Below, one piece after another: positions 29,844 through 33,391 of a DNA stretch of 64,000 nucleotides; the stretch's first letter is position 1; each line of letters opens with the position of its first letter. This DNA is from Alphaproteobacteria bacterium (GTDB taxonomy: Bacteria > Pseudomonadota > Alphaproteobacteria > SHVV01). The translations under genes were made by a program, and so were the position numbers. The DNA lies in NCBI GenBank assembly GCA_965261735.1, contig OZ253470.1:1248001-1312000 (forward strand), read 5' to 3'. The notes beneath the pieces were generated by a model. The model was given only the letters and a program-made list of their open reading frames with translations. It made no database searches and was not told the origin of the DNA.

Positions 29844-30056
29844 CTAGGGATCGCTCGCCGGCTTCTCTTTGGCCTCATCGGCCGCTTGCCCACTCGCGCT
29901 CCCCCGCTTGAGCAGCGGCAGCGAGATCGTCACACCGACGTCGGGTCGGCTCGCGGACCCCCCAGACCCCCGGAGGCCCACCCTATCGCAGCCGCCGAGG
30001 GCAAGCGCGACGCTCAACACCGCCACGGCTCCGCACCACACGCCGATCGCACCCAT
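29844..30056 (-). CDS. Small predicted lipoprotein
   Basis: Hydrophobic stretch ending in lipobox LGG-C; fills the gap between two co-oriented genes. Confidence 0.5.
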   Translation of the reverse strand: MGAIGVWCGAVAVLSVALALGGCDRVGLRGSGGSASRPDVGVTISLPLLKRGSASGQAADEAKEKPASDP

Positions 30057-30491
30057 TCAGCCTGTGTCCGCAAAAGTCTCGGCACCGGCCAGCGCGGCGA
30101 GGCCGGCGCGCGCGACGTCGACGTCCTGCTCGCCCGTGCCCGAACCAACGCCGATGCCGCCGACGATCTCGCCCGCGATGATGATCGGCAGGCCACCCCG
30201 GAGGTTGGTGTGCTTGGCGCCCGCGGCGAGCGCCAATTTGAGCTCGACGTCGGCGGGGCGGCGCCCCGTGGGCGCGCGGTCCGAGACGGCCGTGCGCGCC
30301 TTGGCGAGCGAAGTATCGATGGACAGGATCTTGGCCCCGTCCATCCGCGCGAGGGCGAGCGCATGGCCCGCCGCGTCGACGATCGTGATGCACTGCGGCA
30401 CGCCCAGGGCGAGGGCTCGGGCGATGGCGGCGTTGAGCGCGCGAAGGGCGCCGTCGTGGGTCAGCGCGAGCCGTGAGGCGGTGTCGGGCAT
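30057..30491 (-). CDS. GlcG/HbpS family heme-binding protein
   Basis: IVDAAGH.LA..RMDGA, AKARTA and GGLPI...GEIVGGIGVGSG..EQD. Confidence 0.9.
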   Translation of the reverse strand: MPDTASRLALTHDGALRALNAAIARALALGVPQCITIVDAAGHALALARMDGAKILSIDTSLAKARTAVSDRAPTGRRPADVELKLALAAGAKHTNLRGGLPIIIAGEIVGGIGVGSGTGEQDVDVARAGLAALAGAETFADTG

Positions 30492-30695
30492 CGCGGTCCT
30501 CTCGTTCCAGAACGCCGAGCCTAGCTTAGCTCGGGGCGCGAGGCCAGGCCCCCCGGGCCCTGGCATACGCCTTGCCCCGCACCCCTCGGTATCCCCAACT
30601 CCGAGGTGCGCCGTGTACATCACCGAACAGATCTGGAAGGGCATCGTAGTCCAGTGCAACTGCGGCATGTCTTTTTTGTCAAGTCCTATCAACCG

Positions 30696-30962
30696 TGTGT
30701 GGACGCCCCCGTTGATGCAAGCAGTTTTTGGTCGGCTCGGTGCATGCGGTCAGGTGCTGTCGTGTGTCCGGCCTCTCTATGCGGCAGATGACACGCCGCG
30801 GGCCCGTATGGAGATACGCGGATTGGGTCCAAATCGGTTACGCGAGCTTGAAAGCTCTCCGTTCGGATGCTGGTTTTCCCAACCCGGTCTCGTTGACCTT
30901 TGCCCTTACCTGTCCTCCGTCGTGCCCACATCCCCGACGGCTTCCCGCACTTCGCCGTTCTC
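30696..30962 (-). ncRNA. Putative bridge RNA/seekRNA of the IS1111 element
   Basis: Structured 3' non-coding region with a 9/9 match to the target flank (30835-30843 vs 32068-32076) and a 7/7 match to the donor end (30761-30767 vs 30694-30700). Confidence 0.72.
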
Positions 30963-31985
30963 TCAGGCGGTGGCGGGAGCCCGGTAGCTCTCCTTCTTCG
31001 TCAGTAGCGCCCAGACGATGCGCGCCATCCTGTTGGCCAGCGCCACCGCGACGAGCATCCTCGGCTTGCGCGCCAGCATCCCGGCCAGCCAGGGGTCCGT
31101 CGTCACGCCGCGCCGAACCGCCCAGCGGACCACAGTCATCGCGCCTGTGATCAGCAGCCGTCTCAGATCGCGCTGGCCCATCTTCGATATCTTGCCCAGC
31201 TTCGGCTTGCCGCCGGTCGTGTGCTGGCGCGGCACGAGGCCGAGCCAAGCGGAGAAGTCGCGGCCGCGCCGGAAACTCTCCATCGGCGGTGCGAAGGCCT
31301 GGATTGCCATCGCGCTGATCGGCCCGATCCCCGGCACGCTCATCAGGCGCCTCGCCTCCTCATCCTGCCGTGCTCTCACGTGGACCTCCCTCTCCAGGCC
31401 CGCAATCTTCGCATCGAGGCCGGCGATCTGCTCAAGCAGAAGGCCGGCCAGCTCGCGGACCGCTTCCGGCAACCTCGAAGCCGGTCCCTCAAGCGCCGAG
31501 GCCAGCCGGCCGACATGAGCCGGCCCCTGCGGGGCAATGACACCGAACTCCGCCAGATGGCCGCGCAGCGCATTAATCGTCTGGGTGCGCTGGCGCACCA
31601 GAAGATCGCGCGTCCGGAACAGCATGCCCCGAGCCTGCTGTTCCTCCGTCTTCACAGCCACAAAGCGCATGGTCGGCCGCGACGACGCCTCGCAGATCGC
31701 CTCCGCATCCGACGCGTCGTTCTTTTGCCGCTTGACGTACGCTTTGACGTAGATCGGTGGGACCAGTCGCACCGCATGGCCGAGACTGCCGATCTCCCGG
31801 CCCCAATGGTGCGCGCCGCCGCACGCCTCCATCGCCACCGTGCAGCGTGGCTGCGCAGCCACAAAGTCCAACAGCTTCGCCCGGCTCAGCTTCTTGCGGA
31901 ACGCAACCAACCCATCCGCCCGCGCACCGTGCAGCTGAAAGCTGTTCTTCGCCAGATCGATCCCGATCATGTGAACCTGTTCCAT
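30963..31985 (-). CDS. IS110 family DEDD transposase/recombinase
   Basis: IGIDLAK, MEACG, KNDASDAEAI, SVPGIGP, WLGLVPRQHTTGGK and ALANRMARIVWA. Confidence 0.95.
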   Translation of the reverse strand: MEQVHMIGIDLAKNSFQLHGARADGLVAFRKKLSRAKLLDFVAAQPRCTVAMEACGGAHHWGREIGSLGHAVRLVPPIYVKAYVKRQKNDASDAEAICEASSRPTMRFVAVKTEEQQARGMLFRTRDLLVRQRTQTINALRGHLAEFGVIAPQGPAHVGRLASALEGPASRLPEAVRELAGLLLEQIAGLDAKIAGLEREVHVRARQDEEARRLMSVPGIGPISAMAIQAFAPPMESFRRGRDFSAWLGLVPRQHTTGGKPKLGKISKMGQRDLRRLLITGAMTVVRWAVRRGVTTDPWLAGMLARKPRMLVAVALANRMARIVWALLTKKESYRAPATA

Positions 31986-32236
31986 GGACGCCCCCTTCCT
32001 CGCTTGGCGTTAACAACACCGCCAACCTGGCACATCGCGATGCCGTCGGGAGGGGCGTCCACCCCATCGGTTACGCAATGCGAGTCATGCGGACAGAGGC
32101 ACTCGACCGTCGCCCTGCTGGCGGTCTGGTTCGGTATCGACAAGGCCCGCTTGAGGCGTCAGGTGGATCAAGATGCCGCCTGAGGGGCGGCCGGCCGTCA
32201 AATAGTGCCGGCTGTCCGGCGCCGCGCGCGCCACGC

Positions 32237-33391
32237 CTAGATCCTTAGCTGCCCGCCGTCCCAGCGCCGGCCGAGCGCCACCGCGGCCGCCCCGCCGAGG
32301 GCTGACATCCCGGCCATGACGAAAAAGGCATCGCCCGCGATCGCCGCGTAGAGGGCGCCCGAGCCGAGCATCGTGGTGCCCGCGAGGAGGCCGATGGCGA
32401 CCGCCGAATACAGCGTCTGCGCGGTCGCCGTGGTGCCCGGCGGCGAGGCCCGAGCCATGAAGTGCATGGCCCCGAGATGGGCTGCGGCAAAGGTCAGCGA
32501 GTGCAGCGTCTGGGCCACGATCAAGAGCCCGAGACCGGTGCCGAGCGCGGTCAGGCTCCAGCGCACGACCCCGGCCACCGCGGCGATCAGGATAAGCTGC
32601 GGCGGCGGTAGGCGCCGGATGAGCCACCCCGAAGCCGCGAACAGCACGACCTCGACCGCAACGGCCTCGGCCCAAAACAGGCTGATGGTGTCGGCGGCAT
32701 AGCCGGCGGCGAGCCAATGCAGGGTGCCAAAGCCGTAGTAGATGGTATGGCTCGACTGAATCATTCCCGTCGCCAGCAGGAAGAGCAGAAAGGTGGGGTG
32801 GCGGAGCAGCGCGCGCATCGGCGCCTTGACGGGTGCGCCCGGTGGCGCCCTTGTGTCGGGCACGCCCGCGCTCGCCAGTAGGGAGAGCCCGATGCTGCCG
32901 AGCAGGAGCCACAGGATCAGGTCCGCCGAGCGGCCGACGAGAAGCCGGCCCGCTATATAGGCGCCGGCCATGAACGCGATCGATCCCCACAGCCGAATGC
33001 GACCGTAGTCGAGCTTCTCGCTATAGACGGTGAGCAGCGTCAGGTTTTCGCCTAGCGGGACCATGGCCGAGAGCGCGACGCCGGAGAGGATGGAGATCCC
33101 GAACAGGGGCCAGAAGCCGTGGGCGAACGCGAACAGGGCGTAGGCCGCGAGGCTGATGGCGGCGAGCACGATCAGCGGCCTCTTGCGGTCGCCGCGGCGG
33201 TCAGCGATACGGGCGATCAGCGGATTGCCGATAATCCGGGCCCATAGCGGCGTCGACAGTAAAATGCCGATCTGCGCCGGGTCCATGTCCCGCGAGGCGA
33301 GCCAAACCGGCCAGAACGGCAGGAGCACGCCAACGACGAGAAACAGCGCGACATAGAACAGCGCGAGGCGGATCGACGACGCACGAGCCAT
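32237..33391 (-). CDS. MFS transporter (HcaT/3-phenylpropionate-like)
   Basis: LPFWPVWL, DYGRIRLWGS and QTLHSLTFAAAHLG. Confidence 0.88.
   Translation of the reverse strand: MARASSIRLALFYVALFLVVGVLLPFWPVWLASRDMDPAQIGILLSTPLWARIIGNPLIARIADRRGDRKRPLIVLAAISLAAYALFAFAHGFWPLFGISILSGVALSAMVPLGENLTLLTVYSEKLDYGRIRLWGSIAFMAGAYIAGRLLVGRSADLILWLLLGSIGLSLLASAGVPDTRAPPGAPVKAPMRALLRHPTFLLFLLATGMIQSSHTIYYGFGTLHWLAAGYAADTISLFWAEAVAVEVVLFAASGWLIRRLPPPQLILIAAVAGVVRWSLTALGTGLGLLIVAQTLHSLTFAAAHLGAMHFMARASPPGTTATAQTLYSAVAIGLLAGTTMLGSGALYAAIAGDAFFVMAGMSALGGAAAVALGRRWDGGQLRI

Follow-up and report, generated by a model that had tools for sequence, protein, structure and literature searches.

The 64,000-nucleotide stretch analysed here (the window; Alphaproteobacteria bacterium, assembly GCA_965261735.1, contig OZ253470.1, positions 1,248,001 to 1,312,000) carries on its minus strand, at 30694-32067, a complete insertion sequence of the IS1111 group, 1374 bp long with the right-hand copy of its CG core (30694-30695) included. 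Our analyses indicate with high confidence that this is an active or recently active element, whose 340-aa DEDD recombinase is guided by a same-strand RNA of about 150 nt from the non-coding region (NCR) 3′ of the gene. The decisive evidence is the covariation of guide segments in the NCR with their DNA partners, together with empty copies of the insertion sites, and not the single 9-nt match that can be read in the window. The class has already been published (seekRNA or bridge RNA, 2024), making this a new example of a known mechanism and not a new mechanism, and the element may already have been named.

Guide segments and their natural reprogramming within one genome

The segments of the NCR that correspond to the element's flanks and ends, and the flanks of this copy, are the following:

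30835..30841, minus strand: left target guide GUAACCG, made up of 5 programmable nt and the CG core, with the same sequence as the left flank's top strand
30860..30865, minus strand: right target guide CGAACG, with CG+TTCG of the top strand as its complement
30761..30767, minus strand: left donor guide ACACACG, the same letters as the right end's final 5 nt followed by the core
30808..30813, minus strand: CUCCAU as candidate right donor guide, complementary (one G-U pair included) to ATGGGG of the left end
32068..32074, minus strand: left target flank plus core, GTAAC+CG, whose bottom strand pairs with the left target guide
30690..30693, minus strand: GTTG, the right target flank at this copy, which fits the right guide imperfectly (3/4 with G-U allowed)

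The genome, searched as a single 5.03-Mb contig, holds 14 full-length copies of the element at 99-100% identity (family A), plus fragments, and five sibling copies at 80-82% identity whose open reading frames (ORFs) are open too. In an alignment of the NCRs of family A, family B and the single copy L019, conserved scaffolds are broken by three variable blocks. Block 1 is the reverse complement of the core plus right flank, block 2 equals the left flank plus core, and block 3 equals the right end plus core. Siblings with different guides occupy correspondingly different targets, and the core dinucleotide, CG in family A, is TG in the siblings:

Family A: right guide CGAACG, left 9-mer GCGUAACCG, donor guide ACACACG; site ..GYAACCG|TTCG; right end ..ACACACG
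Family B: right guide GGUACA, left 9-mer GCAAAAAUG, donor guide ACAGAUG; site GCAAAAATG|TACC; right end ..ACAGATG
L019: right guide GGGUCA, left 9-mer GCAAAAUUG, donor guide ACAGAUG; site CCAAAATTG|ACCC; right end ..ACAGATG

The window copy by itself says less. The 9-mer GCGTAACCG occurs exactly twice in the 64 kb, both times on the minus strand (30835-30843 and 32068-32076), where 0.63 matches are expected per window by chance and at least two occurred in 11 of 100 shuffles. That it should fall inside the 269-nt NCR by chance is unlikely, but alone this match is not decisive.

Guides and targets change together in related elements

Scanning one genome per species yielded 80 loci, mostly in metagenome-assembled genomes and spread over several phyla, with proteins 66-99% identical. 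Both ends were found at 72 of these; the other eight, with no recognisable end pair, were left out. With 19 local copies added the set came to 91 elements, 89 of which have the conserved RNA start (L093 and L095, without an NCR anchor, were left out). Six elements longer than 1430 bp, probably nested or mis-paired, were dropped (L032, L056, L068, L102, L104 and L108). The 83 elements that make up the final set represent 78 unique insertion events, among which 31 different left-guide 9-mers occur.

Positions 1 to 9 of the left guide match their own flank in 13, 35, 62, 67, 76, 73, 76, 78 and 78 of the 78 events, against non-self match rates of 0.19, 0.40, 0.28, 0.27, 0.26, 0.22, 0.28, 0.73 and 1.00. 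Positions 1 and 2 (GC) match at the background rate and are therefore scaffold, leaving an effective left guide of 7 nt. When each class was represented once, 138 of 155 variable positions matched, and the permutation maximum was 72 (0/100,000). For the right guide, contiguous pairing summed from right-flank position 1 reached 170 over 37 classes, with a permutation maximum of 107 (0/100,000), and in 37 of the 52 events having at least four pairs the guide pairs with both core bases too. Its usual register places the window guide at 30860-30865. The left donor guide matches the right end at 7/7 positions in 79 of the 83 elements and at 6/7 in four (0/100,000 permutations). It occurs in nine distinct types, each with its own right end (ACACACG, ACATACG, ACAGATG, ATAGACG, ATGTACG, ATATACG, ATACACG, ATAGATG and ACACATG), which differ at non-core positions as well.

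The CUCCAU block stays constant while left-end positions 5-6 vary, the ends ATGGGG, ATGGAG, ATGGGA and ATGGTG all occurring with the same RNA. It is conserved and complementary, and remains a plausible candidate for the right donor guide.

An earlier sequence-only reading of this stretch had named most of these guides, and all of its strings lie where it had placed them on the minus strand. Its 9/9 match of RNA to left flank plus core is present at both positions, but the first two letters (32075-32076) match by chance, as the 13/78 and 35/78 at these positions indicate. The right guide, which it had given as AAC at 30861-30863 and called ambiguous, is unambiguous at the family level, where AAC is the middle of CGAACG. 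The 7/7 correspondence of ACACACG (30761-30767) to the donor right end plus core was borne out by covariation in nine types, while CUCCAU (30808-30813), complementary to the left end as proposed, does not follow the left-end variants. Other copies had been suggested as a check on flank and guide covariation: the siblings' changed guides match changed targets, and in the relatives 0/100,000 permutations do as well. The contrary outcome, the same RNA sitting at unrelated targets, was looked for and did not appear, since 13/13 left flanks end in CCG and 11/13 pair with at least 6/7 left-guide positions.

Three of the related elements, L043, L044 and L098, have CG at the left junction and CA at the right one and may carry unequal core copies. 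The right guide of L043 and L044, UGAAUG, would pair with CA+TTCA.

Copies, borders and empty sites

Among the family-A copies, 13 of 14 have intact ORFs and one has a 1-nt deletion (the frameshift in L014); relative to the window copy, the others carry 0-6 substitutions over the 1374 bp. Divergence of the flanks starts exactly before ATGGGG and after ..CACACG, with CG at both junctions. The 14 copies show 13 different flank pairs, and all 13 left flanks end in CCG; L012 and L014 share both flanks, and L009 has their left flank.

Empty sites were rebuilt by script and then used as genome queries. Uninterrupted paralogous sites were found in this way for four insertion contexts, one of them identical at 120/120 positions, and each holds a single CG or TG, which confirms the borders and the 2-nt core. 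Insertion is thus site- and orientation-specific, with only the core common to both junctions and no further target duplication. For the window copy, no empty paralogue was found in its own genome, and its flanks are adjacent in no genome among 30 relatives plus its own; in G004 both flanks lie about 3 kb apart at 68% identity. The empty site of the window copy is one that we infer.

The genome is heavily loaded with insertion sequences. L012, L014 and the left-hand flank of L009 are located in a 2.1-kb repeat (L154, G000:C1:165508-167650; insertion point at about L154:964) that encodes a Mutator-family (IS256-like) transposase (PF00872, E 2.9e-67) and of which the central part is present in about 60 copies. 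The right flank of L009 (G000:C1:3634573-3635949) differs from that of L012 and L014 and is itself repeated, its rebuilt site giving 134 matches, which suggests a rearrangement beside the element. L009 is also the only local site at which both guides are poorly matched.

Anatomy of the element and its transposase

The main parts of the element, apart from the guides, are:

32052..32062, minus strand: left subterminal inverted repeat (sTIR), GTGGACGCCCC in minus-strand reading; 11 nt, 100% complementary, 5 nt from the end
30963..31985, minus strand: transposase/recombinase gene, 340 aa, with a DEDD RuvC-like domain and PF02371 with GLVPRQHTTG
30748..30909, minus strand: conserved part of the 3′ NCR, the predicted seekRNA/bridge RNA, between GUAAGGGCA and the outer stem's 3′ half (alignment, RNAalifold and pair counts)
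30715..30720, minus strand: TTGCAT, a -35-like hexamer 17 nt before CACG+AT, a hexamer present only at the circle junction
30699..30709, minus strand: right sTIR, GGGGCGTCCAC in minus-strand reading, partner of the left sTIR

The left end starts with ATGGGG and comprises the 82 nt upstream of tnp. The stop codon of tnp (30963-30965) is followed by an NCR of 269 nt ending in ..CCACACACG, so that the longer NCR lies downstream of the gene (269 nt vs 82 nt upstream), as in the IS1111 group. The 11-bp perfect sTIR, 5 nt inside each end, is within the 7-17 bp described for the group (PMC11208160).

The ORF at 31985-30963 carries the Pfam domains PF01548 (DEDD_Tnp_IS110, E 5.9e-15) and PF02371 (Transposase_20, E 4e-22) and reaches 319.5 bits, where the cut-off is 140, with the NCBIfam model 'IS110 family RNA-guided transposase' (NF033542). 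Its 340 aa fall inside the 330-350 aa range given for IS1111-group transposases in section 6 of PMC11187229, where a GL-P----S(t)G motif is also described. D9, E53, D89 and D92 align with the catalytic D11, E60, D102 and D105 of IS621, and the second Thr of GLVPRQHTTG aligns with the IS621 nucleophile S241. In tblastn comparisons the protein shows 40.5% identity to transposases of the IS4321/IS5075 family (residues 1-336) and as much as 69% to unnamed copies on rhizobial plasmids; similarity to the IS621 protein is low (phmmer E 7e-10, whole sequence). Every feature by which the IS1111 group can be recognised from sequence is found here (DEDD domain with PF02371, Thr-Gly, 11-bp sTIR, long 3′ NCR and site-specific insertion), which supports the assignment.

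A conserved predicted RNA structure with the guides in unpaired regions

An alignment of 36 distinct NCRs gave an RNAalifold consensus of 28 pairs, with these elements in the window copy:

30895-30898 / 30748-30751, minus strand: outer stem GGUC/GACC (consensus structure)
30820..30885, minus strand: target-binding stem-loop (consensus and pair counts)
30878-30885 / 30820-30827, minus strand: closing stem of the target loop, GGGUUGGG / CCCAAUCC, with 5/8 pairs changed on both sides (helix 3)
30872-30873 / 30829-30830, minus strand: extra target-loop pairs CC/GG
30854-30857 / 30844-30847, minus strand: inner hairpin GAGC/GCUC between the two target guides
30770..30804, minus strand: hairpin between the two donor-guide strands, GGCC/GGCC with inner GCGGC/GCCGC, nearly invariant and with weak covariation support

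Across the alignment 98.4% of cells are paired, and 11 of the 28 pairs show compensatory change. None of 500 shuffles reached any of five structure measures, and slid-partner controls were 23-45% paired. Many pairs alternate with G-U, which is compatible with the gene strand only. All four guide blocks lie in unpaired regions. In the target loop CGAACG (30860-30865) stands 5′ of GUAACCG (30835-30841); both contain CG and overlap at the core.

On these points, too, the sequence-only reading held. The strings that it saw closing the loop, GGGTTGGG (30878-30885) and CCCAATCC (30820-30827), form a stem with compensatory changes; its CG core is the single CG of the uninterrupted paralogous sites; and its intact IS1111-type recombinase with a readable RNA specificity is what the domain, sTIR, NCR and covariation evidence describes.

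In another genome the NCR of a family-A copy (G031:C3:2234800-2236717; L126, L129) is broken up by about 1.7 kb of sequence; the break follows ..CUCCAUAC directly and falls between positions 104 and 105 of the query.

How insertions obey the guides

We scored the 13 unique local insertion events of family A with G-U pairs allowed. The left guide pairs at 7/7 positions in nine events, 6/7 in two and 5/7 in two. The right guide pairs at 4/4 in five (TTCG), 3/4 in one (the window copy), 2/4 in four and 1/4 in three. Of the four weakest left matches, three stand next to a perfect right flank, and perfect left matches also occur beside unrelated right flanks.

Copies with the same guides elsewhere sit at CGGTAACCG|TTTG in another genome and at CGGTAACCG|TTCC in a metagenome contig; a further one has the right flank TTCGG, its left flank not being known. 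No perfect unoccupied GTAACCGTTCG is present in the genome, where 1.9 would be expected. Metagenomes scanned with a 34-nt stretch of the target loop gave no match, and with a 20-nt stretch three loci, one of which (L121) yielded a complete element; viral contigs scanned with the left junction gave none.

The left guide is followed at 30833-30834 by AU, of which A(U) is nearly invariant and equals the first two left-end bases. At three of the five local sites with no right-guide match (L005, L006 and L009) the right flank begins with AT. A match of this AU to right flanks was rejected as a general rule, as it fits 3/17 local events and only 1/61 elsewhere; the AU may lengthen the paired stretch so that it reaches the right flank or left junction.

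Two groups of related elements have inserted into sequences of other siblings. L133 and L148 (one place, G002 contig C4, about 1628366-1630790) and L032 share the left guide GCGCAAACG and a right-guide region ..UUGACCG. In two genomes, insertion of this type has taken place at GTAAGGGCAAACG|GTCAATCGAGAC, where the guide-RNA genes of other clade members have their conserved start, and splits the outer stem of the host element. L063, L100 and L143 have the left guide ACGGAGGCG and the right-guide region UCUAUGGAC and occupy the site ..CACCGGGGGCG|TCCATAGACG, inside the right-end inverted repeat of a different sibling of the L055 type.

A joint reading of these patterns, which we put forward only tentatively and regard as doubtful, is that in this clade a G-U-tolerant 7-nt left guide would suffice for target capture, with the right guide improving weak sites only, and that sibling guides have been re-aimed at each other. 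Among the papers listed by a weak literature search, judged by title and abstract start, none dealt with elements directed at their siblings. If true, guides that target siblings would amount to RNA-guided competition between mobile elements.

Expression and proposed mechanism

A sigma-70 scan of the integrated element found no promoter. In 33 of 37 distinct circle junctions computed for relatives, TTGNNN stands 16-18 nt before a hexamer made of the last four right-end bases and the left-end AT; the computed junction of the window element reads TTGCAT-17-CACGAT. We infer a composite promoter at the circle junction, which would fit the junction promoters reported for the family (PMC12288879; PMC11187229 section 14). 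Contigs from three metatranscriptome runs in two studies cover only the element, including the NCR, and leave the flanks at 30300-30669 and 32076-32500 uncovered, an absence that is uninformative by itself; they continue into other flanks, still with GTAACCG on the left or TTCG on the right. The contigs of two RNA runs of one study (X15 record 10 and X16 record 17) both start at 30748, where the outer stem has its last base. This hints weakly at an RNA 3′ end, although contigs also break for other reasons.

In the mechanism that we propose, the RNA would be made, bound by the recombinase and required for its action. One stem-loop would present two single-stranded target guides overlapping on the CG core, and CUCCAU would probably be presented too, pairing with the left end ATGGGG. 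The element would excise as a circle in which right end, CG and left end are joined, a join that would create the composite promoter of TTGCAT, 17 nt and CACG+AT. The complex of RNA and recombinase would then synapse the circle junction with a matching target, and strand exchange at CG would leave CG at both junctions and no other duplication.

Weighing alternative explanations

It could be argued that the RNA guides the choice of target only, as a seekRNA in the narrow sense, that the protein reads the ends through the sTIR, and that the matches of ACACACG and CUCCAU are not donor guides. This would agree with ISEc11, in which a short seekRNA of 82 nt with target matches only supported transposition (PMC11187229 section 10), with the statement in section 14 of the same paper that the end-binding domain is not known, with the perfect conservation of the 11-bp sTIR, and with a CUCCAU block that does not covary with left-end positions 5-6. 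The ACACACG block, however, covaries with the right end in nine types, 79 of 83 elements matching at 7/7, and Durrant et al. predicted loops complementary to the donor in elements of the IS1111 group (PMC11208160 section 12); we consider target-only guidance unlikely. That the matches of the NCR to flanks and ends are by-products, of chance or of junction copying at the DNA level, and that the protein chooses the site, is scarcely credible. In its favour, the window copy taken alone gives only short matches, and the 9-mer is expected by chance at the rate given above, with two of its letters being chance matches. Against this, three guide segments covary with three DNA partners over 31, 37 and 9 classes, each with 0/100,000 permutations; the guides sit in loops of a structure backed by compensatory changes and strand-specific G-U pairs; the right guide is the reverse complement of its flank and not a copy; and experimental reprogramming of family members has been published (PMC11187229 section 10). 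It is also very improbable that the element is a fossil, with copies that are relics spread by duplication of host DNA and not by transposition. The flanks shared among L012, L014 and, on the left, L009 speak for this, as does the frameshift in L014, but duplication is not required to account for L012 and L014, whose shared flanks are copies of a multicopy IS256-type element; 13 different flank pairs, intact ORFs in 13 of 14 copies with 0-6 substitutions in 1374 bp, and identical copies at different sites, found in a second genome and in a metagenome, stand on the other side.

Several results weigh against an active element guided by its RNA at both target and donor. Folding of the single sequence is no better than that of shuffles (z = -1.54 for the 269-nt NCR and -1.18 for the 157-nt core), and the minimum free energy fold pairs the guides with each other; as folding energy is not significant, covariation was relied on instead. 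A scan of 30000-32800 with Rfam 15, whose coverage of IS1111-type RNAs is uncertain, found no family at E<=1. At five of the 13 local insertions (L002, L005, L006, L008 and L009) the right guide finds no match, with at most 2/4 pairs, and thus is not obligatory. Over the 83 elements CUCCAU shows no covariation with the left-end variants, and the sufficiency of the short ISEc11 seekRNA may mean that the donor loop is dispensable in this group. Contigs from RNA libraries cannot show strand, ends, protein binding or genuine transcription, and DNA carry-over is possible; in four read runs there was no circle junction, excision or empty-site joint.

Relation to known systems

Likeness to the IS1111 seekRNA elements ISEc11, ISPa11, ISKpn4 and ISPst6 (Siddiquee et al. 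2024, PMC11187229) was judged by their published description. As described there, these have a DEDD transposase of about 340 aa with GL-P----(S/T)G, sTIRs and a long NCR downstream of tnp, and their seekRNAs carry a top-strand-complementary segment 5′ of a bottom-strand-complementary one, the two overlapping at the insertion point, all of which is seen here. Natural re-direction by guide replacement is published for ISEc11 vs ISXne4 (section 10 of that paper), and here distinguishes family A, family B and L019. The circle-junction promoter reported for those elements would have its counterpart in the composite promoter proposed above. Unlike the four, the present element has its own targets and guides and a CG core (TG in siblings). 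A donor guide covarying with the right end is evident here, whereas PMC11187229 leaves end recognition open.

With the bridge RNA of IS621 the present RNA shares a two-part organisation with target and donor guides and the core dinucleotide in the pairings (PMC11208160; Hiraizumi et al. 2024, PMC11208158), the left guides pairing to the bottom strand, the right guides to the top strand (PMC11208160 section 7). The aligned residues point to the same composite chemistry of DEDD and Ser/Thr. Unlike IS621, the RNA is encoded 3′ of the gene (5′ in IS621), the guide order in the loop is reversed, with the right guide 5′, the sTIR is long, Thr stands at the nucleophile position in place of S241, and no equivalent of the handshake dinucleotide was found beside the right guide. 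Handshake guides of the IS621 style were tried and rejected: the two bases after the right guide (GA in family A, CG in family B) lack complementarity to the right end's final bases, and right flanks show no match to the AC that follows the donor guide.

Similarity to the IS4321/IS5075 transposases extends over the full length (40.5%), and the likeness includes sTIRs and targeting of another mobile element's sequence. IS4321 and IS5075 reportedly have sTIRs and target the inverted repeats of Tn21-type transposons. Here, by comparison, copies lie in an IS256-type element and siblings appear to target each other; the target is different, and the proteins are only 40% identical.

The known mechanism is unchanged by this element. 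What the locus adds are programmable lengths, variation of the core between siblings, a clearly covarying right-end guide and a non-obligatory right-target guide. Three intact sibling elements in one genome, differing in target guides, donor guides and core, constitute an internally controlled case of natural guide reprogramming, and about 30 further guide classes occur in relatives. These bear on the programmable positions (5+2 on the left, 4+2 or more on the right) and are useful raw material for the engineering of recombinases of the IS1111 type, about which less is known than about IS621.

An additional inverted-repeat motif at the start of tnp

The inverted-repeat motif occurs a third time, as GGGGCGTCCA on the minus strand at 31985-31994, where it overlaps the ribosome-binding region and start codon of tnp. 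This copy is complementary to the left repeat (32052-32061), 57 nt upstream, and is kept in siblings with matching changes (GGAGGCGTCCA in L019). It could serve to occlude translation of read-through transcripts, or as a protein-binding site.

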